A stretch of DNA of 64,000 nucleotides from Eledone cirrhosa (Eukaryota). Under the pieces are notes generated by a model. That model had not been told where the DNA came from, did no database searches, and saw only the letters and a list, made by a program, of their open reading frames with translations. Of the stretch, positions 10,093-50,804 are shown in pieces. The DNA lies in contig OZ024759.1 of assembly GCA_964016885.1 (NCBI GenBank), positions 16,430,001-16,494,000 on the forward strand, read 5' to 3'. Position 1 is the stretch's first letter; each line of letters begins with the position of its first letter. The position numbers and the translations under genes were made by a program.

Positions 10093-10124
<32 letters not shown>

Positions 10125-14167: not shown

Positions 14168-14314
14168 CTAAGAATGGGCAAGAAAAGGGGAAATTTAAAC
14201 ACTTCAGTTTCTCTTGATTAAGCAAAAAAATTTTAGCAAAGAAAAAAAAAGAACCTATAAAATGTTCTTTTATACTTTTTAATACTAACCCACCCAAAAC
14301 CTGGTTCTATTTCT

Positions 14315-14539
14315 TTAACCCTTTAGCATTTACATTACTCTATATATACTATTGTATTTTCACACTAAACACTTTATTTCATATTATTATCCCACATAAT
14401 ATCAAATCTATGAGATTTTGATATTTATTTTGAGAACAATACCTTAACATAAGTCTGAGCAGCCAGTTATGGCCAGTTTGAACAGAAAGAGGTGAGATAA
14501 TTCTGGCCAGATATGGCCAGTTTAAATGCTAAAGGGTTG
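14315..14539. mobile_element. ~220-bp TTAA/piggyBac-type MITE (other copies ~5615-5839, 7370-7588, 7865-8063, 9253-9478, 12732-12954, 17617-17770, 28690-28925)
   Basis: Ends TTAA-CCCTTTAGCATTTA ... TAAATGCTAAAGGG-TT(A/G)A, with a shared internal TTTTGAGAACAATACCTTAAC. Confidence 0.8.
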
Positions 14540-15425: not shown

Positions 15426-15575
15426 AACAGAAAGGTCCTCATTTGATTGCAGTTCTAAGTAACCTCGGCTATCCATTGAAAAGATTTCGGCAAAGCAGAA
15501 TAAAATTAACTCAGCTATCGTCAAGCCATACGTGAGGCAGAGCAATACAAACCGAAGTAAATCAGTGTCGTAATC
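15426..15575 (-). CDS. ABCC1: ABCC1-like exon 5 (end of TMD0)
   Basis: AG/GT boundaries, 150 bp, DYDTDLLRF...ELILFCFAE. Confidence 0.88.
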
Positions 15576-16797
15576 CTGAAATGTAGAAGATGTCATCATT
15601 ATCATCACCATTTAACATCCATTTCTCCACGCTAACATAGTTTATGTCAAATAAAAATTAAATAGAAAGGCAAAAAGGCAGTGGTGGTGCCATAAATAAA
15701 AAAAAAATAAAAATCACTTAGGTGAGATACTAAAGTGTTAGTACCATGATAAAATGCACCCAGTTCACTCTGTAAAGTGTTTGTGCTGGTGCCATGATAA
15801 AAAGCACCCAGTCAACTCTGTAAAGTGGTATGGTTAGTAGCATGATAAAAACACCCAGTCCACCCAGTACTGGTACCATGATAAAAAGCACTGTCCATCT
15901 TGTAAAGTGGTTATGCTGGTACTATAATAAAATGCAAGCCATGAGTAATGTACTATACATACACCTTTGACGAGTTGTAGTGCACCTGAGCACTTTACAC
16001 AATAATTTCATTTTTTTTTTTTTTTTTTCTTTTTCAAATAAAATGATAATTTTAGTAAATCCTTCCAAATACTTCATTAATTAATTGAAAATTAAATTAA
16101 AATCTGCCAACATAATTTTTCCATGAACCATATAGGGTAAAGACCCCCTTTGATCATGAACAACCATGAGATTTGCACCTAAAAAGTTTCCCCTGTGAGG
16201 CACAAGTCTGGGCAAGGTTGTTTGGAGAAGACCAGCAGTCACCCATGAATACCAGTCTCCCTTCTCTACACCACTGATGTTGTCCAAGAGAAAGGAAATG
16301 GTGAATACAGCTTGGCAGCAGTGCTGTCGCAACTCATTTGTACAGCTGAGTGAACTGAAGCAACATAAAATAAAATGTCTTGCTCAAGGACACAATGCAT
16401 CACCCAGTCCTGGAATTGAACTCACAACCTCACGATTGTAAACCCAACGTTCTAACCACTAAGCCATGTGTCTTCATATATTATATTACTAAATAATGCT
16501 TTCTGATTTAGGCACAAGGCCAGCAATTTGAAGGGGGGGGGGGTCGATTAGAACGACCCCAGTGTATTACTGGTGCTTTATTTATCGACCCCATAAGGAT
16601 GAAAGGCAAAGCTAACCTCGGCAGGATTTGAACTCAGTGGCGTAACTATGCTGTGAAGCCTGTTGTCTGACGCGCTACCGATTCTGCCAATCCACCGCCC
16701 TTAAATTACTAAATAATGAAATAATAATTTCTTCATTAATTAACTGAATGTATATCATTAGACATCCGGTCACAAAAGGGTTAAGCATTTCACTTAC

Positions 16798-16926
16798 CTT
16801 TAGAATAATTTGACTATAAAGTGGAATGGTTTGACAAAGAAGACATAAAAGCCAAAATATGAATTGCACACCAGATGTTAAGATTCCAGATTTCTTCTCT
16901 ACCCAAACCAGAAATAGTGACAAGAC
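16798..16926 (-). CDS. ABCC1: ABCC1-like exon 4 (TMD0: EKKSGILTSGVQFIFWLL)
   Basis: AG/GT boundaries, 129 bp, conserved MRP E-x-x-x-G-x-x-x-SG-x-x-x-x-FW motif. Confidence 0.92.
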
Positions 16927-17829
16927 CTATAAAACAAAAGGTAGCAATGTTTTAGTATTATAAAAGGGTAGGTGATAGGAAGGGCATCCAGCTGTAGAAA
17001 GCTTGCCAAACAAAGGGTCGGGAGGACCCTTCAGTTGTGTCAAGGCAAGACAGCCAACCTAGTTCATGGTGATCTACATGATAAATCCACCCAGTATATG
17101 ATGTAAAGTGGTTGGTGATAGGAAGGGCATCCAGCTGTAGAAAGCTTGCCAAACAATGGGTTGGGAGGACCCTTCAGTTGTGTCAAGGCAAGACAGCCAG
17201 CCTAGTGTTTGGTGATCTACATGATAAATGCACCCAGTATATGATGTAAAGTGGTTGGTGATAGGAAGGGCATCCAGCCATAGAAAGCTTGCCAAAGGGT
17301 TGGGATGGTCCTCAGTTGTGTCAAAGGCATGCCAACCTCCCCTGTGCATGAGTGTACATAAGCGAGATAAATCCCTGGGAGATCACTAGCCACTGCTTCA
17401 GTATTATTTCGGTCTATGTAGACCCATCCAACCTTTGCTAGCAGGAAAATCGGACAGTAAAATGCTGGTGTGATGATGATGAACCCATATTTGACAGCTT
17501 TTAAGATGTACGTTTTTTTTTTCAAAAAAACGTCCCAGAAAATCAATCTGCGACTTATAAGGTCAAGGCTCAGTTTGGGTTACTGGCTAGTGGAGGTCTA
17601 GTGCTGCAGTGGCCCTTAACCCTTTAAGCATTTACATTACTCTAGATTTACTATTGTATTTTTCACCGTAAACACTATTTCACATAATTATCTCACATAA
17701 TATCGAATCTACAAGATTTTGATATTTTGAGAACAATACCTTAACATAAGTATGAGCAGCCAGTTATAGATATTTATTCTTAATACTTTAGCATTCAGTC
17801 ATCAAAAGAAAGGAGGTAGGTGTACGAGC

Positions 17830-18240
17830 CAAACTTGCTATCATCAATTTGGTATTCTTCCAACTCTTACCTATGGTCATGAATCTTGGATAATGACTGA
17901 AAGAATACAATCAAGAATACAAGCAGCAGAAACTGGGCTCCTCTGAAGGATCTTAGGAGTAATGTTACTCAAAGTAGAGCTGTTTCTTCTGTGAATTGAG
18001 ATATCACAACTCTGAAATTATCTACATGCGGTCAGAACGACTAAGGAAAGAATCACCGGACAGATTTTACAGGGAAAACAAATCAGCAAGAGTCCAAGAG
18101 TAAACCTCAGGCAAGATGGTTGGTTATCATCCATGAGCTTAGTTGGTCTCGCTTGGGGATTCAGCCATATCAATTTAGAGGTAGTTGCTTCTGACAGGAC
18201 CCACTGGAAGTCATGTTTGAGGACTCTACTCCCACAACCT
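17830..18240 (+). mobile_element. Decayed RTE (Rex3/Expander-like) 3' fragment; related fragment at ~10140-10440
   Basis: LPTLTYGHESWIMTERIQSRIQAAE motif with frameshifts. Shares its 3' segment with 10260-10430. Confidence 0.65.
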
Positions 18241-18283
18241 TCTCAAGAATAATTGGGTGAAGAAGAAAATACTTAATACTTAC

Positions 18284-18409
18284 GAAAGTTATTATTCTTA
18301 GGACATATCCAATCAGCAAGGCTTTCACATCCAAGATGGTATTTGTTTCACTGTTAAACAAAGTAACCAAACTCACCACATCCACAGTGATGAGAAAAAT
18401 AAGCAAGGT
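18284..18409 (-). CDS. ABCC1: ABCC1-like exon 3 (TMD0)
   Basis: AG/GT boundaries, 126 bp, hydrophobic TLLIFLITVDVV...LRIITF, phase 0/0. Confidence 0.85.
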
Positions 18410-18678
18410 CTGTAAATTATATTTAAACAACATAAAGTGACTTTCGTTATGCGATAAACTTTTACGTTCCTGGAGAGAAGATGGGCTCTGCCAGGTTAAA
18501 AAAAAATGCCCTAGATATGCTGTATATTAATGTGGTGTCCCTACGACTCTTAGGACTTATGGATCCATATATACATACATACAAACTTTTACACTAATCA
18601 TGCTTACATTCTCAATATCATTTAAGGGACTTTAATCTTGCAACCATAATATGTCACATGCGTTTGTATATTTATATA

Positions 18679-19294
18679 CCATATATGCCGGTGTACAAGT
18701 CGATCTGGCGCATAGGTCGACTCCTAAAATTCTGAAGTGTAATTCAGGTTTAGTCCTATATTGGCAGGATAAGATGACCCCCCCCAAAAAAATCAGGCAG
18801 TTGCAGGGGAAATAATTCAAAAAATTTAGTGGCGCGCTAAAAGCTAAGACACTTCTAAGACACTTCAGTCACAAGTGAGTTCTGACTGAGTAAAACCAGC
18901 CTAGCCTAACCTTAACGAACCTATAAGCTACGGAAAGTCATTATTATAACCTTTGCGGTTTGAGTTCAAATCCCGCCGAGGTTAACTTATCCTTACAGGG
19001 TCGATAAAATAAAGTACCAGTAATGCACTGGGTAATTGCTGGCCTTGTGCCAAAAGTAGAAACAATTATTATAACCTCGACATTAAATAGACTTAACAAA
19101 TATGAGATTCAGTAGGAAATAATTGTGGTGGGCTACTACAGATATTGTAAGTGGTTTACAAGTGTTAGGCAGGCAGTTTCACTGTTTACCCCTCAGTGGT
19201 AAAGGTTCACTTTATATTCGGCTGACAAGTCGACCCCTGGTTTTGGAGAAATATTTTTAGGCTCCCATGTCGACTTGTACGCTGGCATATACGG
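18679..19294. mobile_element. pogo/Tigger-type MITE with a nested SINE fragment
   Basis: TIR CCATATATGCCGGTGTACAAGTCGA / TCGACTTGTACGCTGGCATATACGG, TA on both flanks. SINE piece 18952-19066 has TSD ATTATTATAACCT. Confidence 0.8.
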
Positions 19295-20159
19295 TATTAC
19301 TATTCTTATTCTTATCACTTAGTCTTATTTTCATTGCATGCTGTCACTACATTATTGAGCACAGTCCTATGTTCCCTGGGAACATGCAGTGTTATATTTC
19401 TCTTGTGAAGGCACGTGGCTTAGTGGTTAGAGAGTTGGATTATCAGACTGGGCAGTGTGTCGTGTCCTTGAGTAAGGCACTTTATTTCATGTTGCTCCAG
19501 TTCATTCAGCTATAGAAATGAGTTGTGGTGTCACTGGTGCCAAGCTGTAACAGCCTCTACCTTTTCCTTGGACAACATTGATGGCATGGAGAGGGGACAC
19601 TGGTATATATTGTCAACTGCTTGTCTTCCACAAAAATACTTTGCCCAGGCTTGTGCCTTGAGGAAAAACTTTCTTGGTCATTCATGATCGAAGGGAGTCT
19701 TTACCTTTACTGCATCACTAATCCTTTAAAATTTACACACACACACAAACATTTGCACAATACATTTCCTATCTTAGTCATATTAATTACTACAATAAAA
19801 AGTTCACTGCAAGAGGCTTGGGCTGTAACCATGTAGATAGTTATTTCTCCAAAGTTATTCATATATTTAATCCTGTGTGTCGTACATATATGCTGAACAT
19901 TTATGTAAATATAGCTGTAGGGACATTGCATCAGTCAAAACTTCAATGACTCCTGAAATTCACCAACACTACACCTGATATTCCCCCTCCATACATGCAC
20001 ATTTATGTGCGTGTGAGCATGCATCATGACTCATATACTGTTCGCTTTCCTGACATTTGTACATTATTCTATTTACTATATAAGCTCTTTTAGCTAACTT
20101 TCCTGATGAGTTGTAGTGCACCTGAGAACTGTACACAATTTTCATTATATCCTAGATAT

Positions 20160-20618: not shown

Positions 20619-20779
20619 CTGAAAAATTATTCAAAATCATACAAGATTAATGAAACAAGAAGAACACAAGTGTTTTAAGGTCATTTTCACAGTTAGAGAA
20701 GGGGGATCGTGTTGTTTGGGCTCTGTAATAAGTATCTCCATTTTACCTTATTGTCTGCATCTCCGTCCTTACCAAACCC

Positions 20780-21740
20780 CAGTTTTCATTTTCTTCACCT
20801 TCATCTTTAGCCATGTCTGTCTTGGTTTTCCCCCCTTCCTCGACTTCCTTCCACATTCATTTTCACTACTCCTCTCACCCAGTCTCATCTCCTCAACACA
20901 TGACCCAGTCATCTCATTTAATTCCTCCTCACAACAGTCATAACTGGCTCAATTCCTCTCACCCAATCTCTTATCTTTCCTCAACACATGACCCAGTCAT
21001 CTCATTTAATTCCCCCTCACAAGAGTCATAACTGGCTCAATTCCTCTCACCCAATCTCTTATCTTTCCTCAACACATGACCCAACCATCTCATTTAATTC
21101 CCCCTCACAAGAGTCATAACTGGCTCAATTCCTCTCACCCAATCTCTTATCTTTCCTCAACACATGACCCAACCATCTCATTTAATTCCCCCTCACAACA
21201 GTCATAACTGGCTCAATTCCTCTCACCCAATCTCTTATCTTTCCTCAACACATGATCCAACCATCCCATATAATTCTCCCTCACAAGAGTCATAACAGGC
21301 TCAATTCCTCTCACCCAATCTCTTATCTTTCCTCAACACATGATCCAACCATCTCATTTAATTCCCCCTCACAACAGTCATAACAGGCTCAATTCCTCTC
21401 ACCCAATCTCTCATCTTTCCTCAACACATGACCCAACCATCTCATTTAATTCCCCCTCACAACAGTCATAACTGCCTAATTCCTCTCACCCAATCTCTTA
21501 TCTTTCCTCAACACATGACCCAGTCATCTCATTTAATTCCTTCTCACAACAGTCATAACAGGCTCAATTCCTCTCACCCAATCTCTTATCTTTCCTCAAC
21601 ACATGATCCAACCATCTCATTTAATTCCCCCTCACAACAGTCATAACTGGCTCAATTCCTCTCACCTAATCTCTTATCTTTCCTCAACACATGACCCAAC
21701 CATCTCATTTAATTCCCCCTCACAACAGTCATAACTGGCT
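20780..21740 (-). repeat. RTE 3' ORF fragment with an 88-bp tandem array (~10 units) in ABCC1 intron 1
   Basis: 88-bp period (20941, 21029, 21117). Minus strand reads RWLGHVLRKD, ending in WVRGVVKMNVEGSRGRG.PRQTW. Confidence 0.85.
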
Positions 21741-21834
21741 CTATCCACCCCACCCTCTGTAATTCATTATTTCTCATCCCCATTTACAAATATTAACCTC
21801 CACCTAATCTTTTCAATGTGGGCATGCATATCTG

Positions 21835-22125
21835 TGTGTATATATGTGTATATACATGTACGTGTGTATGTATATACGTGTACGTGTGTATGTATATATG
21901 TGTACGTGTGTATGTATATATGTGTACGTGTGTATGTATATATGGACGTGTGTATGTATATATGTATGTGTGTATGTATATATGTATGTGTGTATGTATA
22001 TATGTATGTGTGTATGTATATATGTATGTGTGTATGTATGTGTATATATATATATATATATATATGTGTGTAGTGTATATATGTGTATGCGTGTATATTT
22101 GTATTTGTGTGTATGTGTGTGTTTA
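21835..22125. repeat. Compound (TATG/TG/TA)n microsatellite
   Basis: Direct inspection. Confidence 0.9.
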
Positions 22126-23084
22126 CATTTATTGTTTATGATCAGTAGTTCTGTGGTTCAACAAAAAGATCGATAAAACAAGTACCAGACGAAAAAACCC
22201 AAAAAGTATTGGGTCGATATGATCAACTAAATCGCTTTAAGGTGGTGCCCCAGCATAGCAACAGTCGAATGCCTGAGACTGTTAAACGAATAAAATAATA
22301 TATTTTCAAATAAATATTTGCTGTGACACTGTATTTCATTCTTTCGAGGTCGATAAACCCCCCTCCCGCAAAACAAATTGTACCAATCGATTCTTCTATA
22401 TTTTTTTTCCTCGGAAGGTTGTATTTCGTCATTGTTAGAGAGCCGCCTTACTGAAGTATCAATTGATGCTTGTAAGGGTGCTTGACTATTTCGGTACCTT
22501 AGCCACGTCATCCCTCGCGGCAATGCTATCAGTGGTTTTGGGTTGTCTCTAACACTTTCTCTGTTGTAGTGTGTAACAGAGTGTTCGTCAGTCGACTGTC
22601 GTTTTATTTTCTTCTGACTATATATTATTGATTCGTTTCTTTCGTAAATAGTATTTATAAATTATATAAATTGTATTTTTATGTACAAAATGTTCTCAAA
22701 TTTTTGAATCATTGATGATTTTTTTTTTTACTAACTATTCCTATAAAAGACATTCAAAAAACTTTTAATTCACTAAATTATTATTGAAAACGATTTAACA
22801 AAATCCTAAAAGAAATAATGTATCGGTTATATAAAAATATTATGCCTAAGAACTTTTTTTTTTTTTTTTTTGCAAGCCTTTAAATTTAAAATCCGTAAAG
22901 TTTATTAAAAAATAACATTGGGAATGTGTTTTAAATATATACATATATAACGTTACAAATGCGTAAATAACATAAAATACAAATTCGTAAATAACAATAA
23001 CATTACGCAATTCGTAAATTCATCGAACAAAAATGATAATAGAAAACATTTTTTTTTTTTTTTTTGCCACCCACTCGGGCCCGC

Positions 23085-23896
23085 TCTGTTTGCACTGGGC
23101 ATTGATGACATCAGTAAGATGGGGGTTGAGTTGGACCTCAACGTCTGGTATCTCGACGACACCTGTTTGGGGAAACCTCCAGATAAGGTTCTCGCCACTG
23201 CTAACAAAATGGTTGAGGAGCTTGACCGTCGGGGTCTGCAGGTCAATAGCTCCAAATGGTAGCTCTGGATCCTTAACCACCCGGCTTTTCAACATCAACA
23301 GACAATTGACCTGTTTACAGAGTCCTTTCCTTCCATTGCAGTCCCTCCCCCCGTCGGTTTACAGACCTTGCCTTCGAGTCAATCTTCCAATCGAAGATGG
23401 TTGGCCTTGAGCAGTTGGTTAAGAATATTGAAGCAATCGAACCCCACGGGGTTTTTTCATAATCAGAAACTACCTTTCGATTACTAAGCTTCTATATCTA
23501 CTCGGGGTCAGCCCTTCTCACAGATTTTCGTCCTGCCTCCGACGCTTCGACGAGAGACTAGAGTGCTTGGTAAATGTTAGACTCTCTCCAGAGTTCCGCG
23601 ATCAGGCTGCGTTGCCCAAGTGATTTGGGGGTCCGTCCCTCTCTCTCCCTGCTTCATTTCCTCCACCCACGCTTGCTCCACCCTGGTGTGCAACATCCTC
23701 TCCGACATGGAGTTAGATGAAGCTCTTCAACAATGGAGTGAGTTGGGCTTGTTTCTTCCTGAGAAGGTAGAGGACGGTCGAAGTCAGAGAGCTTGGGACA
23801 GCATAAGTTCGAAGGCCACCTTCGACTCCCTCTTCGTCCAGTCGGATCAGTTTTCAATGCGCCGCTTACTGTCTGTCATCGCCAAATACCCAGTTG
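23085..23896 (+). mobile_element. Decayed CRE-like non-LTR RT fragment
   Basis: LNVWYLDD...ELDRRGLQVNSSK (YLDD) and downstream TKLLYLL...FDE, SQRAWD, with frameshifts. Confidence 0.75.
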
Positions 23897-24289
23897 ACTA
23901 AATTATTATTGAAAACGATTTGACAAAATGATAAAAGAAATAATGTATCGGCTATGTAAAAATATTATACCTAACAACCTAGATTTTTTTTTTTTGCAAG
24001 CCTTTAAAATTCGTAAGAAAGTTTAATAATAAAAATAACATTGCAAATATGTTTTAAATATATACATAAATAACATAACAAATGCGTAAATAACAAATTG
24101 CTCGCAATTCGTAAATTCATTGATCAAAAATGATTAAAAAAAAAAAAATGAAAGAAATTGAAAATTAAAACGTCCTAACCGACTTAGTTTTCTTATAACT
24201 TTCTTAATCTTAATAAAACATATTTTTAAATTTTTGTAAAGATATATTTATAGATTTTCTAAGGTATGTATAACAATTATGTTGATGAA

Positions 24290-24345
<56 letters not shown>

Positions 24346-24549
24346 GAAGTAATTCCGTCGGCAAGGTCCAGGAAAAAAGAGTGCTCTATGTAAGTTACAT
24401 AGCTTATTAGTTATGTAATAAACAACATAAGATAATTATTTCATTTACCAGTTGTTTCTTGAAAGCAAACAAATTTGCTTTCAGTCATCAGAATGAAAAA
24501 ATCCTGGTGTATTTATTGAAAGTGGATTTCAATAAATACACCAGGATTT

Positions 24550-24609
24550 TTTCATTCTGATGACTGAAATCAAATTTGTTTGCTTTCTAGAAACCACTGG
24601 TAAATGAAA
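24550..24609 (+). ncRNA. Type I hammerhead ribozyme motif (mirror copy on the minus strand at 24439-24498)
   Basis: Stem I TTTCATT/AATGAAA, CTGATGA 24557-24563, hairpin stem II, GAAA 24590-24593, stem III ACC-ACT-GGT, GUA site at 24602. Confidence 0.75.
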
Positions 24610-24634
24610 TAATTATCTTATGTTGTTAATTACA

Positions 24635-24671
<37 letters not shown>

Positions 24672-26146
24672 GGTGGTATTTTTTTATGTATGTATCAAGT
24701 TTTTATCAATAAAATCGTAATTTATATCATGAAAAAACATATCTGTGCAAATTTTCAATAAAAAATATTATGATTAAGAAAATTACGAGAAAATAAAGTC
24801 CGATTGGCGGGGAATTGAACTGTAGTTATGGTTAATAATAATATAAAAAAACTGTTTCTACATTTGACACGGCTAGCAATTTGAAGGGATGGAGGAGGGG
24901 GGAAGTCGATTATATCAACCCCAGCGCGTTACTGGTATTTTATTTTATCCACTCTGTAAGGATGAAAGACAGAATAATAATTTTCTAGTTTTGACACAAG
25001 GCCAGCAATTACCCCAGTTTATTACTGGTATTTTATTTTATCGACCCCATAGGGATTTGAACTCCGAATGGCAAGGGCCGTGACTATTGGTCAAAGCATA
25101 GCGTCCGACCCTCTACCGATACTGCCAATTCACCGCACTAAGAAAGACAGAATAATAATAATCGTGTTTACATTTGACACAAGGCTATATTAATTTGAAG
25201 GGAAGGAGAAATTCGATTAAATCGACCTCAGCGCATTACTGGTACCTTATTTTATCGACCACCCACCCCGTAAGGATGAAAAGCAAAAATGATAATTATT
25301 ATTATTGTGGAGAGAGAAGTGCCGTCTTTCATCCAGTTTGTTGAAAGGTGGGCGAGAGTGGCGAACATGGTCCGTGTGAATGGACCTGCCTTGAGGATAT
25401 GCCTGTAGATTGGAGTAGAAAGACTGGGAGAGAGCACTTTGCCCAAGCGGCCAGGGTGAGCGTGGCTTTTGTGGGATTTCTAGACGATTGACCGTTAAAG
25501 TCTCTTTACCTCTGGGGAAGTTATGTTTGTTTTAAATGTTTATATGTTTATTTTCTTGGTCTCTTTTATAAATTTTATTTTTCACAAAAAAAAAACCCCC
25601 CAAAAACCCCGTCCTGTATCATCTTTCATGTGAGCCCTGTGTGGCTAATAAAGAAAAAAATGATTATAACGGTTTCTGCTTTAGGTACAAAACAATATTG
25701 GAGAAAGGGAAAGTCTATGAAATCGACTTTAGTACGTTACTGGTGCTTTATTGTATCGACACCCCGTAAGAATGAAAAGGCATAATAATACTAGTAATAA
25801 TAATAATTGTTTCTACTTTTGACACAAGGCCAGCAATTACCCAGTACATTACTGGTACTTTATTTTATCGACCCCGTAAGGATGAAAGGCAAAGTTAACC
25901 TTAGTAATAATAATAATTGTTTCTACTTTAGGCACAAGGCCAGCAATTACCAGTGCATTACTGGTATAATAATAATGATTTCTTTATTGGCTGACATCAA
26001 GAAAAACATTACAGACGGAACAGGACGGTACGATGTGGGTTTTGTGCGTGTAAAGATTTTTATTATTTATAAAAGAAAAAAAAAAAGACATAGAAACATA
26101 TATATATATAAACAAATAATAATAATAAACAATGCAGGTACGTTAC

Positions 26147-29263: not shown

Positions 29264-29912
29264 ATTAGGAATAAGAGGGATCAGATGCTGTTTACTCGAG
29301 AGAAGACTATGTTGGTATGGTCACGTGATGCGCATAAAAGACGACAGCTGTATAAAAAAGTGCAGGGCGATAAAAATAGACGGTAGCCACGGAGTAGGCA
29401 GACCCAGAAAAACCTGGGACGACTTGATAAATTCCGACCTCACACACTTACACCTCTCCAAGAAAATGTCACTGGACTGAGATCTTTGGCACTACACAGT
29501 AACACGGAAGACCCGCCTTGCCTAAGTACAAAGCGAAACCTACAGTCAATAGGCACCTCTAACAAAAATACACCCCCGTCCCACTACCCCCCACCCCATC
29601 CACACCACCCCCTTTAATGTAAAGTTATGTTGGTACCACAACATCCAGTCCGAAATAAATGAGGTCGTGTAGGTGTCACGACAAAAAAAACACACAGTCC
29701 ACGCTGTAATGTGGCCGTGTAAGTAACACGGTAAAAACCTCCCTGTCCACACTGTAAACGTGGTTGGTGTTAGGAAGGGCAGCCAGCCGTAGAAAACCCG
29801 CCAGGCAGTCCTATACGAGCAAGACAACCAATCTTGCCTCAAGTGGGAAAATTCCCGTCCAAACCCATGCTAGCGTGGAAGATGGACGTTAAACGATGAT
29901 GATGATGATGAT
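29264..29912 (+). mobile_element. 5'-truncated copy of the same RTE family as 45041-51313, inserted into a CR1 tail
   Basis: Closely matches 50544-51313 (ORF end, 3' UTR, (GAT)n tail). CR1-like 3' sequence lies on both sides. Confidence 0.9.
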
Positions 29913-31715
29913 GCGTGCATGTGTATGGAGGGGGAATATCAGGTGTAGTGTTGGAGAATTTTGGGAAGTATAGAAGTTAATAATAATAATTGTTTCTACT
30001 TTAGGCACAAGGCCAGCAATTACCCAGTGCATTACTGGTACTTTATTTTATCAACCTCGTAAGGATGAAAGGCAAAGTTAACCTCAGCTGGATTTGAACT
30101 CAGAACATAAAGTGCAGTAACTCTATGCTGCAAAACATGTTGTCCAATGCTCTACCAATACTGTTAATTCATCATCATCATCATCATTTTACATCCACTT
30201 TTCCTTGCTTGCAAGGGTGGGACAGGAACTGATTCTGGCTTGATTTCTACAGCTGGATGCCCTTCCTAACACCAACCTCATTTACAGTGAGTGCTGGGCG
30301 CTTTTTTGCCGTGGCACCTCCACGACCATTTTGCAATGGAATGATATGGACCCCAGTCCCTATCATCTCATTTCTACAGCTGAGTAAAGTGGAGCAATGT
30401 GAAATAAAGTGTCTTGCTCAAGGAAACAACACATCACCCGTTCTGAGAATTGAACTCACAACCTTTCGATTGCAAGGCCAATGCTCTAACCACTAAGCCA
30501 TGTGCCTCATCACCCAAATACAATGATAATAATGATTTCTAGTATAGGCACAAGGCCAGTAATTTGGGGGCAGGGGAAGTCGATTAAATCGATCCCAGTG
30601 CATTACTGGTGTGGATTGGCAGTATCGGTAGAGAGTCGGACGCCATGCTTTCCAGCATAGTTACGTCCCTTTATGGTCTGAGTTCAAATCCCGCCGAGGT
30701 TAACTTTGCCTTTCATCCTTACGGGGTCGATAAAATAAAGTACCAGTAATATACTGGGTAATTGCTGGCCTTGTGCCTAAAGTAGAAACAATTATTGGTG
30801 CTATATTTTTATCGACCCACTAAGGATGGAAAGCGAAGTTAACCTCAGCTGGATTTGAACTCAGAACATAAAGAGCCATAACTCTATGCTGCAAAACATG
30901 TTGTCATTGCTTTACCGATACTGCTAATTCATCGCCCAAATACAATAATAATAATTGCTTCTACTTTAGGCACAAGGCCAGCAATTACCCAGTGCATTAC
31001 TGGTACTTTATTTTATCGACCCCGTACGGATGAAAGGCAAAGTCAACCTCGGCGGGATTTGAACTCATACCGTAAAGGGACGTAACTCTATGCTGGAAAA
31101 CATGGCGTCCGACCCTCTACCGATACTGCCAATCCATATTGAGAGAGCAAGATAGATGTTAGAAAAAACATTTGCCTCCTATCACCTAGACAAGCTGGTA
31201 TAATCCAGAGCTTAATAGATCATATGACAGTAATGTGTCATCTTGTAGGTGGTTTTGGTGGTGTGTGTCATAATGGGGGAGATGGTGATGGTGATGGTGA
31301 TGTTTGTCATAATGTAGCAGGTGGTGGTGGTGGTGGTGATGGTGATGGCAGTGGTAATTTTCCAGCAAATATAACAATTCTTTAATCATTTTAAATCCAG
31401 TTTACAACTTAACCACAACTTCCTTAATATACCTTCTTCTTCTTCTGCTGCTGCTGCTGCTGATTCTTCTTCTTCTTCTTCTTCTTCTTCTTCTTCTTCT
31501 TCTTGAGAGGCTAGTGGCAACATATATACATATATATATATATATAAAATAGATAGATAAATATACACGGGTGTGTATGATTGTGTATAGAAGATTATAT
31601 TAATAAGAGGAATTCAAACTTTGTCTGATTTACTCGTTTTATTTACAATCCTTTAAAATTTATAATGGTATTATAATGAAATAGTATGATAGAATATTAA
31701 ATGTTAAGTGTTAAT

Positions 31716-33535: not shown

Positions 33536-34350
33536 TTTGAGAAGTGAACACCTGGAAATGTGTTGTGTTTTGCCCAAGGGGATCAGTAATTAGTATTAAT
33601 ATTGGTGTGAAGGGCGGTGGATTGGCAGAATCGGTAGAGCGTCGGACAACATGCTTTGTGGCATACAGTTACATCCCTTTATGTTGGCTTTGCCTTTCAG
33701 GGTCGATAAAATAAAGTACCAGATTTAATCGACTTTCCCCTTCCCAACAGTTGTCTAGAAAGTAATAAGTGTGGGTTCAACCTCCACACTTGCTGATGCC
33801 CATTTTTTTCTGTTCAGTAGGGGCTTATATCCTCTGTTATTAAACTGCTAGCTGGCCCTGTGCCGTCAAAAATGATGGCTAATTGTAATATCTATACATA
33901 ATATAAAAAAGAGATGTTTGTTGGTTAGTTGGTTGGTTCCTTCACACTCACTCACACAAGTGATACAAACACACAGCTATGTCAAATCTTAGAATACTGG
34001 ACTTCTATAGTTTCTCCCCTCCCCTTCTACAGACATCACATAGATGTGTGTGTATTAGACGCCTCTTCCTTCCTCAGTCGACATAATCACCCCTTCCTTC
34101 CTCAGTCAACATAATCACCCCTTCCTTCCTCAGTCGACATAATCACCTCCTCCTTCCTCAGTCGACATAATCACCCTTTCCTTCCTCAGTCATCTCTAGT
34201 GTGTGATGGACAAATACACAAGGCTATTATATTAGTATATTTTCTGTGGTTAAAAAATTTGTTGAAAGATTCTAATTCAATTTTCATATATATATATGTA
34301 TATATATCAATGATATTAATAAATGGAAAATATATTTATAAAACTATATT

Positions 34351-34411
34351 TATTCTATTATATATATTTCAAGGGTACCAAAACTTTGGTACGCTCTCAT
34401 CAGATAAAATA
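34351..34411 (-). ncRNA. Type I hammerhead ribozyme motif (mirror copy on the plus strand at 34529-34589)
   Basis: Stem I TATTTTAT/ATAGAATA, CTGATGA, stem II GAGCGTACCAAA/TTTGGTACCCTT, GAAA, palindromic stem III ATATATAT, AUA site. Confidence 0.78.
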
Positions 34412-34744
34412 CAAAGTTTGTTTTATAAATATTGACATATCCAGGAATGAGACCTTAACGGTTCAAGTTTTACCTGGATAGTTAAGGTCTCATTCCTGAA
34501 TATGTCAATATTTATAAAACAAACTTTGTATTTTATCTGATGAGAGCATACCAAAGTTTTGGTACCCTTGAAATAAATATAATAGAATAAATATGGTTTT
34601 ATAAATATATTTTCCATTTATTAATATCATTGATATTATACTCCAGAAAACCTGTTGAGTGCTTCGAATCTGTTATAAATATATATATTTGTTGAATTAC
34701 CAACAAATTAAATATCCCTTTGCTTATATGTATATATATACATA

Positions 34745-35242
34745 TCATCATCATCATCATCATCATCATTTTACGTCCGCTTTTCCCTGCTTGCAAGGGT
34801 GGGACGGGTCTTATTCAGCAAAGCATCTCTCCACTTGTCACGGTCCTTCGTCATCTCCACCGTGAGCTTCAGCGATCTGATGTCTGTTCTCATCACCTCC
34901 GCTCATGTTTTTCGTGGTCTACCTCTACCACGTCTTCCTTCAACTGGCATTTCCTGGCACTTCTTCACCCATCGGTCATCCTCCATGCGTATCACATGTC
35001 CATACCACCTCAGTCTCCTCTCCCGTACACTACATTCTATCCCTCTCAGACACAGTTTCTCTCTCAACACATTTATGCTGGGTCGTTCACGCACATTTAC
35101 ACTGCACATCCAACGGAGCACGCTTACCTCATTTCTCTCCAGCCGCCGCATATCCTCTGCAGTTGCTGCCCATGTCTCACTACCATGCAGCATCGCGCTC
35201 CTCACACAGGCATCATATAACCGCCCTTTCGTACGCAGGGAG

Positions 35243-35243
<1 letters not shown>
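34745..35243 (-). mobile_element. 5'-truncated RTE copy (related subfamily)
   Basis: KGRLYDACVRSAMLHGSETW...LRWYGHV...GRPRKT with an (ATG)n tail. Confidence 0.9.
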
Positions 35244-35306
<63 letters not shown>

Positions 35307-35349
35307 ATGATATATATTCAACGTCCAGCCCATTCATCAGATGAAATAG

Positions 35350-35417
35350 TTCATCTGATGAACAGGCTGAACCTTTTTATAAGGATCGTCTAATTTCTTG
35401 AAACCTTTGGTAATGGA
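35350..35417 (+). ncRNA. Type I hammerhead ribozyme motif, same family as the 24.5-kb element
   Basis: TTCAT-CTGATGA(35355)-imperfect stem II-GAAA(35400)-CCTTTGG-TA-ATGGA. Downstream ~100 bp is homologous to the 24.4-kb element. Confidence 0.65.
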
Positions 35418-36485
35418 ATAATTATATTGTGTTGTTTATTATGTAATTAAAATTAAATAGCTCTGTACTGTACAAAGAGCACTCTTCTTTCCTTTACATT
35501 TTCTACGGAAATACTTAACACACACACACACATATAGTTGTTGCTAGCGGTCCTTTCACTAAATTGTAAATTTACTCTAATTTATTCATTTGAATAAAAT
35601 GGTACTCCTCTTACATTGATGCCCTTAAACATGTACTTATTTTACAAAATGGTTAATCCAGTCAAGATTACAAGGGAACCAGATGTAGTTTATATCAACC
35701 AGTAAATTTTACTTTAATCTTTAATCTATTCTGGATTTCTTGAAAATTACTAACAATTGTGTCAAGTCAAGATTTTCTGTTTTCTGTCTCAAATTCAGCT
35801 CTTGATATTTCATTAGAAATATATGGTAGTGAAAGTGTGTATGTTGTTTAAGTAATATTGTCCTATTATAACGAGCTGTTAATATTTCACGAGAAATATG
35901 GTAATGAAAGTGCTAATAAGCAAGTTTGTTTTGAAACAGCGAGCGAATTTGAAAATAGAAACAGAATCTTTCACCATATTTTTAACTAAAGAAATTTTAG
36001 CCTGATAGTGGGGTTTAGCACCCTCTAAGAAATAGAAAAAGACGAGTATTGATGTACATGGGAGTCAAACCCACATCTTTGGTTATCCAGACTACTGTGC
36101 TACCATTACAATAACATAGTAACACAGTGGTCTGGATAATCAAAGTTGTGGGTTCAAATCCCATGTAATGTCAAAACTCATCTTTTTCCATTTCTTAGAG
36201 TGTTTTAAATCCCACAATCAGGCTAAAATTTCTTGAGTCAGAAATACAGTGAAAGTATTAATGTGGTTTAAGTAATATTGCCCCAAATTGTCAAGTTGTT
36301 TATAGTAACAAGCTGTTAAGTTTTAAAGAAATGTTTACAATGTCATTTTAAGATAGCAACATCATGATGATGCTGTACTTCCTTAACAGAATACTGGCAC
36401 AAAATAGATAAACAGTAAATAACATAGTGATAACATATCTCTCTTGTGCGGGGATACAAACTTAGACACACACATGCATATATAA

Positions 36486-36529: not shown

Positions 36530-37058
36530 CATCATCATCATCATCATCATCATCATTTTACGTATGCTTTTCCCTGCCTGTAAGGGTGGGACGGGAACTG
36601 ATTCTGGCTTGATTTCTACAGCTGGATGCCCTTCCTAACACCAACCTCATTTACAGTGAGTGCTGGGTGCTTTTTTTCTGTGGCACCTCCACGTCCACTT
36701 TACAGTGTGGGCTGGGTGCTTTTTTGCCGTGGCACCTCCACGACCACTTTGCAGTGGAATGGGGTCCCTATCATCTCATTTCTACAGCTGAGTAAACTGG
36801 AGCAATGTGAAATAAAGTGTCTTGCTCAAGGAAACAACACATCACTCAGTCTGAGAATTATACTCACAACCTTTCGATTGCAAGGCCAATGCTCTAACCA
36901 CTAAGCCATGTGCCTCCACAATATATTATATATATATATAATTAGAATTTAGCTTTGACAAAGCTGTATACAAATGTGTATATGAATTTTGTATACAGAT
37001 ATATTCATATACACATTACAAATGTGTATATGAATATATCTAAAGATAGATATATGCC

Positions 37059-37118
<60 letters not shown>

Positions 37119-39199
37119 AACACACATACACACACATTCATAGCTGTGGTTTTCAAAATGTTTATTTAAAAACATATCGTATATCTTTAGATATACGAAA
37201 TTCACACACACACTCACACACATATATATCATCATCATCAACATGATCATCACCGTTTTACGTCCATTCTTCCACACTAGCATGGGTTAGACGGGTATTT
37301 ATTTTATATTTATATGTCATTCGACTTTTAATTTAATATATATATATATATATTTATGAAATAAACAACACAATATATATATATGGCTTAGTGGTTAGAC
37401 CATTGGCCTTGCAATCGAAAGGTTGTGAGTTCAATTGTCAGACCGGGTGATGTGTTGTTTCCTTGAGCAAGACACTTTATTTCACATTGCTCCACTTTAC
37501 TCAGCTGTAGAAATGAGATGATAGGGACTGAGGTCCATATCATTCCATTGCAAAGTGATCGTGGAGGTGCCACGCCAAAAAAGCACCCAGCCCAGACTGT
37601 AAATGAGGTTGGTGTTAGGAAGGGCATCCAGCTGTAGAAATCAAGCCAGAATCAGTTCCCGTCACACCCTTGCAAGCAGGGAAAAAGCGGATGTAAAATG
37701 AAATGATGATGATGAGATATATATAATTGGTGTTGGATGCTTAAAGGGTCCGTATGTGGTACTTTGCTCTATGAGAGCATCGAATGCTCATACGGCCTAC
37801 CACATACGGACACTTTAAGCATCCAACACCAATTATATATATCTCATCATCATCATCATTTCATTTTACGTACGCTTTATAATGGTTTCTAATTTAGGCA
37901 TAATCTAAAAGAGGAAGAGTAATAAAAAAAAATTACTGATAATTGCTCATTCATTTATCAGTAAATTTGATCCCATTAATAAATTGTCAATATTTTGTTG
38001 AATTCCTTTTAGGGAATGCCCATAACTTTTCATAGATATTTACATTTTAACCTTATTATATTTATTTAGGCCAGTAAAGTAATTTAACCTGTTCTACTAC
38101 AAGCAATTTTGATTTTTAAAAATTGTTCTCTATCACCATGAGTTGTCATATTCACAACATCACACCCCTTCCATAAACTTTATATCAAACAAATGAAAAA
38201 AAAAGAGGATAAAATTATGATAAACCATAGAAAAACTGGAATTTGGAAAATATTATTATCAAAAATAAAGAAAAATAAACTGGAAAAAATTATATAGAAC
38301 AGTGATTCTCCAATGGATGACACTTGACTCTCAGGAAAGGAATTTTAGCCAGAAGATTTTAAACAGGTACAAACACTTTAAAAAATGGTGGTGTGTGGCT
38401 TAGTGGTAAGTGTCTTGGACATACAAACATAATGTTGTGGGTTCGATTCCTTGACTGGGTTGTGTGTTGTGTTCTTGAACAAAACACTTCATTTCATGTT
38501 GATCCAGTATACTCACCTGAGTATACTGGAGCAATAGCTGGGGGTTTAACCACATGATGGACTGGTATCCTCTCCAGGGACAGTCTTGTACTCTTAGTTG
38601 CTTAATGTCACAGAAACTGGGATAAATTCTGGTTTGATGAGTATCCAGGCTCAAGAGAGACTTTAGAAATACTTAAACATAAACAGTTTTGTATCATAGG
38701 ACCAGGAGGGGGGGAGTATCAAAAGTGTTAATCTTTATGGGTTTTTACTCTTCAAAGTTGGGGTTATAAAATTCTAAAGTGCAAATATCATCATCATTAT
38801 TTATTTATTTCATCGGGGTCAATAAAATAAAGTACCAGTAATACACTGGGATAATTGCTGGCCTTGTGCCTAAAGTAGAAACAATTATTTATTTATTTCA
38901 AAATATTGTACTTAAATGGTGACATATTGCTAGAGCAATTGGAACATTGGATAGAATGCTTTATGGCATTTGTTCCAGCTCTAACACTCTCTGAGTCAAC
39001 TTTGCTTTTCATCATCTATTTCTCACATCCTCTCTCTCTTTCCCTTTCCTTATTTGGTAGTAATCAGTTATGTCGAAACAGAGAAGGATGGGCCCTGCTA
39101 GGTTCAAAATGCCCAAGACATTGTATGTCCCTACGGTGCTTCTACAACTCCACCAGGAATTACATGTCCAGGTGCACATATATATATACATACATGGTG

Positions 39200-47457: not shown

Positions 47458-47558
47458 ATTCTCGCTAACAACCCATCATCCCTCCCTCCCGCCCCCATGC
47501 ACCACCATTATTACGTGGACCAATCATAAGTCAGAGGCCCATACTATCGCTTAACTGG

Positions 47559-50500
47559 TTGCTTTTCGATATGATGGATGGACTACGGAATTCTGGAGAG
47601 TTGAAGAGAGAAAAATGTGGACGCTCAGCGACAATGCCAAAGATAAAGCCAAATTCACCTCGTGGACGAGAATGCAAGCACTCCTCCTTGTTTCGGCCCA
47701 GGATGGCTAACATAACCCCATCACCCCCCGCGCCCCACCGCTCCCACCCTCCAAACGCAATCCAAAACTTCAGAGTTGGTACCATGAATGTAGGTACCTT
47801 AAAGGGTCGCTCTAACGAGGTTGTAGAAATGCTTGAACGTAAGGAGGTCGATGTTTGTTGTATTCAAGAGACCAGGTGGAGGGGAGGGTCGGCTAGATTC
47901 ATCGTGGGTAAAGAACGATGCTATAAGCTTTTCTGGGTGGGAAATGACAATGGGTTGGGTGGGGTAGGAATCATGGTAGCAGAAAAGTGGGCAGATAAGA
48001 TAATAGACGTAAATAGAGTGAACGACAGAATAATTAAAATAAGACTTGTCCTCAATAAAACTACGGTGACAGTAATATCTGCGTACGCACCCCAATCCGG
48101 ACTGCCCCGCGCTATAAAAGACAAATTCTACGAGACACTGATGCTCGCTACCTCCCAAATAACCGACAGTGACTATATAGTTATTGCAGGCGACCTAAAT
48201 GGTCACGTTGGACAACATTGTGACGGCTATGACGGAATCCATGGAGGCTATGGGTTCGGTACTAGAAATGAGGAAGGCTCCAGAATCCTGGAATTCTGCG
48301 ACGCAAATAACTTAACTATCTGTAACACTAACTTCAAAAAACGAGACAATCACTTGATCACCTATAGATCGGGGGAACACACAAGCCAGGTAGATTATAT
48401 CCTTACCAGAAGACGTGACAGAGTGTCTGTTGTTAACACTAAATCCCACCCCCATGAAGAATTCACCTCCCAACATAGACTGATAATTAGCGACCTCATA
48501 GTCAGGACGAGACGTACTAGACAGCGGAAGAGGACTATCCTCAGGAGAAAAATATGGAAGCTAAAGGACCCCACAGCCAGAAATAAATTCCAAAGCATAT
48601 TACTTGACGCTTTCGACAGTAAGGAAGAGCAATTAGAGTCGTATAATATAGAGGAACAGTGGGAATTCCTGAGAGCAAACCTGCTGACGGCGGCAGACGA
48701 AGTCTGTGGCTGGAGCAGGCCTGTAGGTAGGAGGAGAGTAACATGGTGGTGGAACAGTAAGGTGGAGGAGTCAATTAAGGCCAAAAAGCAGGCTTGGAAA
48801 GTATGGCGGGATGGGGGAAGTAGAGAAGACTATCAAGTGGCCAAGAGGGAAGCTAGGAGACAAGTGTACTTCGCAAGAAGGGAAGCAGAGGAAAGAAAGT
48901 TCAAGCATGTTCTACAACGTGAGGACCAAAAACGTGAGGTGTTCAGGATTGCCAGGCAATGTGTCAAGGAAAACCATGATATTGTCGGGGAGAAGTGTGT
49001 ACTTAACGATGATGGCATACTTGCCATCACCGACGCTGATAAGAAGGTAGCTTGGAAGTGTCACTACGAAAGGCTTCTAAATGAGGAGAACAAATGGGAG
49101 AAAGACAGTCTCCCCCAGATCGATCCAATAGAGGGACCAGCAGTGTTAGTTGAAGGTAGTATAATAAGTAAGGCAATCAAAGATATGAAGACGGGTAAGG
49201 CGGCTGGGCCTTCGGAAATAGTTGCTGAGATGCTGAAGGCATCTGGTTCGGTGGGACACACCATGGTCACCCGGATAGTTAACCAAGTCGTACAGAATGG
49301 GGTTGTTCCGAAGGAATGGCGTAGCAGCATCATCGTTAACTGCTATAAGGGAAAAGGAGATGCCCTAGATAGGAGTAACTATAGAGGCATTAAATTAATC
49401 GACCAGGTCATGAAGGTCACCGAAAAAGTAATAGCGCAACTAATCAGAGAGAGAATTGATCTAGATGAAATGCAGTTCGGGTTTGTGTCAGGCAAAAGTA
49501 CCACAGACGCTCTTTTCATTGTACAACAACTACAGGAGAAGTACCTAGCTAAAAGTAAACCCCTATACTTAGCTTTCGTCGACTTGGAGAAAGCCTTCGA
49601 CAGAGTCCCCCGTTCCATTATCTGGTGGTCTCTTAGAAAACTAGGTGTTGACGAATGGCTTGTGAGAGCTATACAAGCCATGTATAAAGAAACAGTCAGT
49701 AAGGTTAGAATTAACAACGAATATAGTGAAGAGTTTAGCGTAAAAGTTGGTGTCCATCAGGGCTCTGTTCTTAGCCCCCTACTATTTATTATTGCCCTTC
49801 AGGCTATAACAGAGGAGTTCAAGACCGGCTGCCCATGGGAACTCCTATACGCAGATGATCTAACGCTCATAGCTGAATCAATGACCGAACTAGAGAAGAA
49901 ATTCCAAACGTGGAAGCACGGCCTAGAATCAAAAGGCCTTAAAATTAACCTGGCTAAGACTAAAGTTCTAGTTTGTAGGAAAGAAAATAAGGCGGCGGTC
50001 CCATCGGGGAAATGGCCATGCTCAGTGTGTAGGAAAGGCGTAGGTAGAAACTCCATTTTATGTCCCAAATGCAAAGTATGGGTGCATAAAAGATGTAGTG
50101 GGATCACAGGTAAGCTAACTAAGAACATAGATTTTACATGTGGCCGGTGCTCTGGTGCAATAAGTAGCAGAAAGTGCCCACAAAATACTAGCTCCTTCAA
50201 CTGCGCAGAGGGTTCTATAGAAATAGTGGACAGCTTCCGTTATCTGGGTGACAAAATCAGCAGTGGGGGAGGGTGCTCTGAAAGTACAGTAGCTAGAGTC
50301 AGAACTGGATGGAAAAAGTTCAGAGAGCTTATACCACTATTAGCCGCTAGAGGGTTCTCCCTAAAAATGAAAGGCAGGTTATACGATGCCTGCATACGAA
50401 CAGCAATGCTGCATGGCAGTGAGACCTGGGCATTGTGTGCAGAGGATATACGCAGACTAGAGAGGAACGAAGCTTGCATGCTCCGCTGGATGTGCAATAG

Positions 50501-50804
50501 TAATATACGTGAACGGCAAAGCATAAACGAACTAAGGAAAAAATTAGAAATAAGAGGGATCAGATGTTGTTTACTCGAGAGAAGGCTACGTTGGTACGGT
50601 CACGTGATGCGCATGAAAGACGACAGCTGTATAACAAAGTGCAGGGCAATAAAGATAGACGGTAGCCACGGAGTAGGCAGACCCAGAAAAACATGGGACG
50701 AGCTGATAAATTCCGACCTCACACGCTTACACCTCTCCAAGACAATGTCACTGGACCGAGACCTTTGGCGGTACTCAGTAATAGAGAAGACCCGCCTTAC
50801 CTAA
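47559..50804 (+). CDS. RTE ORF: AP endonuclease + reverse transcriptase + PHD-like finger (true start uncertain; ATGs also at 47634 and 47703)
   Basis: APE motifs GTMNV, CIQETR, GDLNGH, VDYIL, SQHRL. RT motifs DLEKAFD, GVHQGSVLSP, LLYADD, YLG. RTE C-terminus HGSETW and LRWYGHV..GRP.KTW. No stops or frameshifts. Confidence 0.97.
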   Translation: MLFDMMDGLRNSGELKREKCGRSATMPKIKPNSPRGRECKHSSLFRPRMANITPSPPAPHRSHPPNAIQNFRVGTMNVGTLKGRSNEVVEMLERKEVDVCCIQETRWRGGSARFIVGKERCYKLFWVGNDNGLGGVGIMVAEKWADKIIDVNRVNDRIIKIRLVLNKTTVTVISAYAPQSGLPRAIKDKFYETLMLATSQITDSDYIVIAGDLNGHVGQHCDGYDGIHGGYGFGTRNEEGSRILEFCDANNLTICNTNFKKRDNHLITYRSGEHTSQVDYILTRRRDRVSVVNTKSHPHEEFTSQHRLIISDLIVRTRRTRQRKRTILRRKIWKLKDPTARNKFQSILLDAFDSKEEQLESYNIEEQWEFLRANLLTAADEVCGWSRPVGRRRVTWWWNSKVEESIKAKKQAWKVWRDGGSREDYQVAKREARRQVYFARREAEERKFKHVLQREDQKREVFRIARQCVKENHDIVGEKCVLNDDGILAITDADKKVAWKCHYERLLNEENKWEKDSLPQIDPIEGPAVLVEGSIISKAIKDMKTGKAAGPSEIVAEMLKASGSVGHTMVTRIVNQVVQNGVVPKEWRSSIIVNCYKGKGDALDRSNYRGIKLIDQVMKVTEKVIAQLIRERIDLDEMQFGFVSGKSTTDALFIVQQLQEKYLAKSKPLYLAFVDLEKAFDRVPRSIIWWSLRKLGVDEWLVRAIQAMYKETVSKVRINNEYSEEFSVKVGVHQGSVLSPLLFIIALQAITEEFKTGCPWELLYADDLTLIAESMTELEKKFQTWKHGLESKGLKINLAKTKVLVCRKENKAAVPSGKWPCSVCRKGVGRNSILCPKCKVWVHKRCSGITGKLTKNIDFTCGRCSGAISSRKCPQNTSSFNCAEGSIEIVDSFRYLGDKISSGGGCSESTVARVRTGWKKFRELIPLLAARGFSLKMKGRLYDACIRTAMLHGSETWALCAEDIRRLERNEACMLRWMCNSNIRERQSINELRKKLEIRGIRCCLLERRLRWYGHVMRMKDDSCITKCRAIKIDGSHGVGRPRKTWDELINSDLTRLHLSKTMSLDRDLWRYSVIEKTRLT

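Follow-up and report, generated by a model that had tools for sequence, protein, structure and literature searches.

The hammerhead ribozymes of metazoan Penelope-like elements (PLEs) are described as having a short stem I, a long stem II and a small palindromic stem III, and as lying in the pseudo-LTRs of these elements (PMC4209133; this and the other papers are cited from the parts available to us). They occur as dispersed single motifs and as pairs on opposite strands, separated by 100-700 bp (Cervera and de la Pena 2014, PMC4209133), and the activity of the minimal motifs is low and is seen as dimers only (PMC4209133). Solo pseudo-LTRs and inverted pseudo-LTRs with a tail on one arm have been described (Arkhipova et al., PMC3846280), and head-to-head arms with a one-sided tail are the layout given for these elements (PMC3846280, PMC8557442). 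In the Hydra clade of PLEs, the insert that forms stem III is a 7-nt near-palindrome in 20/26 hammerhead rows and is 8 nt long in 6/26, many rows have no standard pair beside the core, and the target is (TA)n (PMC8557442). The clade is defined by RT and EN motifs, namely RWK, DKT and a CxCX5C linker with CCHH absent, and by its position in the RT tree (PMC8557442). Its octopus consensus, Hydra-1_Obim, has the stem III CC-AAU-GG, and the annotation gives 4 copies that share one end site (PMC8557442). We counted 24 Hydra consensuses from this source, leaving out a 5' motif and an antisense duplicate, and found that the element ends up to 50 nt past the cut site in 10/24, 63-70 nt past it in 2/24, 88-153 nt in 11/24 and 355 nt in 1/24 (PMC8557442). 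In Poseidon of Anolis carolinensis, two internal start sites downstream of the hammerhead bound a tail and the target is AT-rich (Frangieh et al. 2024, PMC11167929); its hammerhead needs protein and is dispensable for insertion in vitro (PMC11167929). Among cephalopods, PLEs reportedly account for 6.83% of O. vulgaris and fall into 190 families (PMC13282606), and the giant squid paper, as far as available to us, lists 235 Rfam hammerhead loci.

We analysed a window of 64,000 nucleotides from Eledone cirrhosa (GCA_964016885.1, contig OZ024759.1, positions 16,430,001 to 16,494,000 of the forward strand); coordinates below count from its first letter. We read the hammerhead-bearing copy at 35 kb as probably (at a probability of about 0.8) what remains of a Hydra-clade Penelope-like retroelement that inserted into (TA)n in 5'-truncated, inverted form: its 3' end, made up of the pseudo-LTR and the tail. 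Its parts are as follows.

35246 to 35317, no strand: (AT)n microsatellite (TRF), left flank and likely insertion target
35320 to 35345, minus strand: inverted head-to-head partial copy (5' strand of stem I, CUGAUGA, 5' strand of stem II)
35350 to 35417, plus strand: type I hammerhead motif, by core letters and stem pairing
35362 to 35399, plus strand: stem II, decayed, with variants in sequencing runs
35418 to 35451, plus strand: AT-rich spacer, reaching the first (short) 3' end of the family
35452 to 35516, plus strand: tail, from the short to the long 3' end
35460 to 35480, plus strand: predicted tail hairpin with a 5-bp outer stem, a 2-nt bulge and a short inner stem (centroid fold)
35518 to 35531, no strand: (AC)n run, right flank

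The core of the motif is complete and intact, with CUGAUGA at 35355-35361, GAAA at 35400-35403 and UA at 35411-35412, and the stems follow the type I order I, II, III around CUGANGA...GAAA...UH. Stem I comprises 5 bp (35350-35354 with 35413-35417), and the 7-nt insert CC-UUU-GG (35404-35410) gives stem III one A-U and two C-G pairs with a 3-nt loop; cleavage is predicted after 35412. The predicted helix of stem II is set off from the core by unpaired stretches, with no stable closure next to the core. The motif resembles the minimal PLE hammerheads of PMC4209133 in stem lengths, dispersed single occurrence, close opposite-strand pairs and within-genome variability. However, the G10.1-C11.1 pair conserved there is absent from this copy, the family having A-U at most at that position, and the part of PMC4209133 available to us includes no cephalopod. 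An Rfam scan of the window gave no match at the gathering score. With E values up to 10, two regions gave 28 and 50 matches, none of them to a hammerhead family, and the matches below the gathering score in these regions were of hairpin type only. A custom hammerhead descriptor, written and tuned with the window's hits already known, recovered 4/5 cores in the window and gave 3 hits in total in 30 shuffled windows.

The initial annotation had placed a short inverted copy before the motif, at 35326-35345. Such a copy is present and extends over 35320-35345; it pairs with 35350-35375 (22/26 identical), breaks off inside stem II and is followed by AT repeats. The right junction of the 35-kb copy was also found in sequencing run X1, with 0 differences over 35507-35750 in one contig, which may stem from the sample behind the window and cannot count as independent support. 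The two arms at 35 kb differ at 4/26 places, compared to ~3% in the other palindromes.

Rather than the third hammerhead element that had been proposed at 35 kb, we found five cores in the window (24491 minus, 24557 plus, 34403 minus, 34537 plus and 35355 plus), arranged in three palindromic loci. The features outside the 35-kb locus are listed below.

24343 to 24521, minus strand: long arm homologous to the 35-kb copy and carrying the tail; it ends 103 nt past the cut site (24446); the stem III pair is broken
24527 to 24640, plus strand: short arm homologous to the 35-kb copy but lacking the tail; it ends 38 nt past the cut site (24602), followed by (TA)n; CC-ACU-GG is intact
34304 to 34468, minus strand: short arm of a second, non-homologous hammerhead family with a similar head-to-head layout
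34472 to 34680, plus strand: long arm belonging to the second family; its additional tail (~44 nt) contains, at 34640-34660, a hairpin designed like that of the 35-kb tail
37351 to 37377, minus strand: spacer fragment of the 24/35-kb family between TA repeats, without a hammerhead (18/18, E 0.001; nhmmer E 0.0017)

Each locus is a head-to-head palindrome, in which 24491 faces 24557, 34403 faces 34537, and 35355 faces its own short arm, so that an inverted, 5'-truncated copy is joined head to head at 3/3 hammerhead loci. Both ends of the loci lie at TA or CA repeats, and where a target-site duplication would be sought, the copies are flanked by microsatellites. The extra tail is present on one arm only at the 24-kb and 34-kb loci, and at 35 kb the inverted arm is cut short. 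The 5' ends differ with the inversion junction, lying 5, ~30 and ~65 nt before the core across the three loci, and copies of the 24/35-kb family stop on the 3' side at one of two places, either 38-39 or 103-107 nt past the cut site; the fragment at 37351-37377 ends near the first of these. The arms at 34 kb end 55 and ~99 nt past the cut site, both at TA repeats, and the stem III insert of this second family is a 6-nt palindrome, a length found in 0/26 of the available Hydra rows. We considered homology between the 34-kb pair and the 24/35-kb family and rejected it, the similarity not exceeding that of shuffles; two unrelated families in the window thus carry a full core in the same head-to-head layout. 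We likewise rejected a dimer of the motifs at 34537 and 35355, which share a strand, since their stem III palindromes, compared by eye, are not complementary.

The homology that had been claimed between the 35-kb copy and the minus strand at 24.4 kb is clear: 35394-35516 aligns to 24464-24347 with 74% identity over 124 columns (E 9e-17 within the window). The local score of 94 compares with a shuffle maximum of 30, with 0/500 shuffles reaching 94, and the tail alone scored 77 against a shuffle maximum of 34 (0/500 shuffles). The two copies also share the end at a microsatellite. Stem II is indeed replaced between them, 286/500 shuffles scoring equally well, which indicates unrelated sequences. 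Defining the unit as a ribozyme plus a tail of ~100 nt is fair for the 3' part; the unit is not fixed, its 5' ends varying and its 3' end occurring at two places. The intact stem III CC-ACU-GG had been assigned to the tailed 24-kb copy and belongs to the plus-strand copy at 24557, which has no tail; the tailed minus-strand copy reads CA-ACU-GG, with the pair broken. Structural constraint had further been deduced from the retention of stem III. Identity of the CC/GG letters is, however, expected by chance in ~30% of cases (p 0.30 for four letters at 74%), and we found no covariation at any pair between the 35-kb and 24-kb copies. Given this chance level, the lack of a covarying pair and the broken pair in the tailed 24-kb copy, the two-copy argument for constraint fails.

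To place the copy within a larger family, we used 4 of 8 listed public sequencing runs, aligned to 35300-35750 at 80% likeness; runs X1, X3 and X5 bear three different organism labels. On these 451 bases we found 2759 contigs in X1, 1868 in X3 and 8 in X5, and 2362 reads in X6. In X1 the depth was 10.6 in the flank and 0.8-2.1e5 over 35396-35507, a ratio of ~8,000-20,000 that should be read as an order of magnitude, summed depth not being a copy number. The 35-kb unit is one copy of a very high-copy dispersed repeat. Over 35348-35379 the ratio in X1 was only ~70. Upstream of 35385-35400 most relatives drop out of the alignment, and the loose ends there are other stem II sequences (agreement 0.54-0.89). 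The 3' end is sharp, loose ends at 35514-35520 entering TA or CA repeats. A further 46 X1 contigs depart into TA repeats at 35451, where the 24-kb short arm ends; this X1 end is confounded by a 6-nt insertion near 35445 in the spacer of the 35-kb copy, missing from many relatives, and the X3 loose end at the same place is the family continuing. A separate, moderately repeated stretch lies at 35572-35667, at ~45x the depth of the flank in run X1. In metagenome and viral contigs, a degenerate pattern covering 33 letters of the spacer had 0 matches. The sole match to a pattern of stem III plus tail, at 1891-1984 of one metagenome locus (L001), was rejected as chance or decayed, there being no CUGANGA upstream and no relevant ORF; it sits in intron-like animal sequence.

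Constraint can be examined in this family through its variants, of which 40/113 rows were listed, 30 of the 40 lying in the element, at 26 places. Among the variant rows listed, 0/20 core plus stem III places vary compared to 26/147 elsewhere (Fisher p 0.027), and for the core only the counts are 0/13 and 26/154 (p 0.10). The stem II register running from 35364/35396 to 35377/35383 has four mismatches in the 35-kb copy, and the family-majority letters turn three of them (35367/35393, 35370/35390 and 35373/35387) into pairs; in X1, the majority letter is G at 35370 (87%), 35373 (84%) and 35393 (91%). All 8 variants listed in this register keep or restore a pair, in a register picked with the variants known and with one-sided changes. 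The inverted arm carries the majority G at the places matching 35364, 35370 and 35373, and pairs with the 3' strand of stem II at -6.5 kcal/mol, compared to -3.7 kcal/mol for the direct arm. With the majority letters mending 3/4 of the stem II mismatches, these data support the view that stem II was constrained in the family and that the 35-kb copy has decayed; the tail variants described below favour constraint on the tail hairpin as well. A-to-I editing as the origin of the family's G letters is disfavoured; ordinary decay of the direct arm is simpler, because the inverted arm has G at three places and the transitions are balanced. Relative to the family majority, the 35-kb copy differs at ~6/38 stem II places (35362-35399) and ~3/104 tail places (35413-35516). 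Candidate explanations for the excess divergence of stem II are faster decay of the hairpin, two templates, or sampling.

The energy cost of imposing the hammerhead fold is 6 kcal/mol if the inverted arm is left out, 23 kcal/mol if it is included, and 70-79 kcal/mol inside the long palindromes. We predict that the 35-kb copy does not self-cleave, given three acquired stem II mismatches, sequestration of the core by the inverted arm (at the 23 kcal/mol above) and no matching same-strand partner in the window.

The tail hairpin is the one new lead. Among the variant rows listed, 0/14 paired places vary compared to 5/7 loop or bulge places (p 0.001), for a structure drawn in knowledge of the variants. 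Hairpins are predicted at the same place in the tails at 24 kb and 34 kb, the 24-kb one folding in a different register; the folding z-scores range from -0.9 to -1.7, none significant alone, and in the MAFFT alignment the 34-kb hairpin was out of register. A bulged hairpin ~40-50 nt past the cut site can be seen by eye in 4/6 new consensuses in the available part of PMC8557442, namely Hydra-2_Amil, Hydra-1_Ajap (at its 5' start), Hydra-2_Ajap and, more loosely, Hydra-1_Crog. The inner stems differ between these consensuses yet pair, again by eye, and the remaining 2/6 stop before the hairpin. Hydra-1_Ajap ends just before the hairpin and begins with it, which are the same two boundaries as at our 24-kb locus. 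The words 'hairpin' and 'stem-loop' have 0 occurrences in the main text of PMC8557442, and we found no description of such a tail hairpin in a literature made up mostly of open papers, Repbase and Dfam entries lying outside it. Located between two putative start sites, the hairpin is, on predicted structure, the best candidate for a protein-binding signal.

The assignment of the 35-kb unit draws on several of these features together: the inverted truncated arm, the (TA)n target, the two 3' ends, the 7-nt palindromic stem III and the shared tail motif make pseudo-LTR plus tail its most likely identity. The hammerhead lies 38 or 103-107 nt before the element end, as in the terminal pseudo-LTR of EN+ Penelope-like elements. 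The Hydra clade is the most likely one, judged from non-coding features only. Like its members (Hydra-1_Obim, Hydra-1/2_Ajap, Hydra-2_Amil and Hydra-1_Crog), the copies here have a type I hammerhead near the 3' end with a 7-nt insert, a likeness surveyed in the Hydra clade, and their ends resemble those found there at ~30-50 or ~90-150 nt past the cut site. The tail word, the hairpin design and the (TA)n target are also held in common, in a comparison made by eye and by short-word search, and the clade is known to occur in octopus. In the supplement of PMC8557442 (584,131 characters), the 10-letter tail word has a single occurrence, in the Hydra-2_Ajap tail, and its 8-letter form is present 6 times, twice in Hydra tails and 4 times elsewhere, in a search that misses words split by line ends. 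The (TA)n preference is not specific to Hydra, since Naiad and Neptune share it in the available part of PMC8557442. Unlike the described Hydra elements, the copies here have no attached ORF, stem II is longer (26-38 nt between core halves) and differs by subfamily, and the copy number is in the thousands or more. The copies also differ by eye from the sequence of Hydra-1_Obim, to whose pseudo-LTR no homology is seen except in stem III.

The ORF of EN+ Penelope-like elements encodes a telomerase-like reverse transcriptase and a GIY-YIG endonuclease, and no remnant of either was found in the window: Pfam searches of 27/81 ORFs of at least 100 aa gave only a LINE and an ABC exon, and seven short motifs searched in six frames detected no Penelope-type ORF remnant. 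A window without such ORFs is expected of truncated copies. Compared to Poseidon as available in PMC11167929, the copies are alike in the AT-rich target and in an optional tail set by two start sites. They differ in the length of the tail, which is 30-40 nt there, ~65 nt here and 44 nt in the 34-kb family, and in the ORF, which starts in stem II in Poseidon, whereas by eye no conserved reading frame runs from the motif here. Two words, from the tail and the core, were absent from the small supplement of PMC13282606, which holds no repeat library. The repeat is of a known kind and represents a new family, apparently an uncatalogued, abundant Penelope-like family of octopods, and the 35-kb copy taken singly is ordinary retroelement debris.

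The insertion may be pictured as follows. The parent RNA of a Hydra-clade element would carry tandem pseudo-LTRs, and the element's endonuclease would nick (TA)n or AT-rich DNA, as proposed by analogy with the anole element (PMC11167929). By the same analogy, reverse transcription would start at a proximal or a distal site, ~40 or ~105 nt downstream of the ribozyme cut site (PMC11167929); it would abort within ~200 nt, and a second, short inverted copy would then be joined head to head, via self-priming or template switching. The inverted arm at 35 kb may have been cut short at insertion or by a later deletion. In the parent RNA the hammerhead could act as a dimer, through tandem pseudo-LTRs and a near-palindromic stem III, or with the help of protein, and the element's protein is predicted to recognise the hairpin that the tail carries between the start sites.

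Other origins of the unit can be considered against the same evidence. RNAs consisting of hammerhead and tail might come from masters that are pseudo-LTRs only and be inserted in trans by a Hydra-type protein, as a non-autonomous, SINE-like unit. This would fit thousands of copies against the 4 annotated for the described octopus Hydra consensus, the fact that every arm in the window stops within ~65 nt upstream of the core, the doubling of depth in the bin beginning at the cut site, and the trans mobilisation by pseudo-LTRs alone reported in the available part of PMC3846280. However, the three loci and the 37.36-kb fragment have different 5' ends, starts do not accumulate at 35413 among the loose ends and start places listed, and divergence of stem II, at the 80% threshold, can account for the drop in depth upstream; we consider this origin quite unlikely. 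Non-LTR retrozymes, tandem type I hammerhead repeats that replicate via circular RNA, are similar in being non-coding and probably pseudo-LTR-derived and in having a type I hammerhead, here with a palindromic stem III, and for their monomers, which occur in dispersed form, an origin from pseudo-LTRs has been argued (bioRxiv 10.64898/2026.07.22.740005, in the part available). Retrozymes are tandem, whereas the copies here are dispersed and inverted: none of the three loci is a tandem array, no head-to-tail copies were found in the window, the arms are inverted and the tail is one-sided. One X3 contig joins 35535 back to 35346 and is possibly tandem. Of the 15 joints listed (of 44), 8 change strand, each at a different place, and 0 go back; some of these strand changes may be assembly or library artefacts. 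That the unit is a retrozyme monomer is therefore very unlikely.

An active ribozyme domesticated by the host to process a local transcript would be compatible with the intact core and with the position of the 24-kb pair in an ABCC gene, within the first coding intron. The motif at 35 kb, though, lies antisense to this gene and 9 kb upstream of its first coding exon; it departs from the family at pairing positions, toward decay, and the fold costs given above, 23 kcal/mol here and 70-79 in the long palindromes, also speak against activity, making domestication highly improbable. Long inverted repeats and AT-rich flanks could suggest a MITE or fold-back DNA transposon whose inverted arms carry hammerhead-like words by chance. 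We give this next to no credence: the arms are unequal and the tail is one-sided, the full core recurs in the same layout in two unrelated families, shuffles yield 0-1 motif per window, and family variants preserve stem II pairing. The Hydra-clade pseudo-LTR with its tail is the reading that we retain for the 35-kb copy.

The weight of the finding lies mostly in the tail hairpin and the size of the family. With thousands of copies in which the core is constant and stem II exchanged, the family offers a natural mutational data set, which bears on the role of the hammerhead in Penelope-like elements, called unclear in the available part of PMC8557442. The hairpin is a concrete candidate for an RNA signal setting the two start sites, testable with the existing in vitro assay. 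A broader proposal is that a bulged, covarying hairpin between two reverse transcription start sites is common to the Hydra-clade PLEs of coral, sea cucumber, copepod and octopus and serves as the cis signal for the element protein, and that in octopods pseudo-LTR-only RNAs with this hairpin and an exchangeable stem II spread as a ribozyme-bearing, SINE-like family of ~ten thousand copies; we hold this combined proposal to be speculative and doubtful.

The ABCC/MRP1-like transporter gene occupies 600-26197 on the minus strand, with twelve coding exons for approximately the first 610 residues, the first coding exon being the weakest hit (E 5e-4). One ABC-transporter exon has 92% identity to Argonauta and 87% to Octopus bimaculoides, and ~60% to other molluscs and insects, which places the host among the octopods. 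The 24-kb palindrome lies inside the first coding intron (20628-26134). Its near-perfect part, 114 bp long (24408-24640, -158 kcal/mol), would form long double-stranded RNA in the pre-mRNA. A-to-I editing is heavy in cephalopods, and RNA of this intronic palindrome is a candidate editing substrate.

Several other repeats were detected in the window. Between the 34-kb and 35-kb elements, a 3' fragment of a LINE with an (ATC)n end lies on the minus strand at 34798-35244; it has 60% amino-acid identity to the long LINE ORF of the window, and a fragment at 29265-29519 is 86% identical. An open frame of 1111 aa at 47469-50804 on the plus strand encodes an APE endonuclease, a reverse transcriptase and a PHD-like finger, and is flanked by tandem arrays of 179 bp and 90 bp. 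At 37703-37856, 59-nt inverted arms (98% complementary) surround a small central hairpin and are flanked by TA and ATC repeats; this is possibly another inverted retroelement end, without a hammerhead core. A 288-bp imperfect palindrome at 35968-36255 is MITE-like, and several inverted pairs of a ~150-bp interspersed repeat, probably a SINE, were seen at 29985-31087 and 36764-37528.
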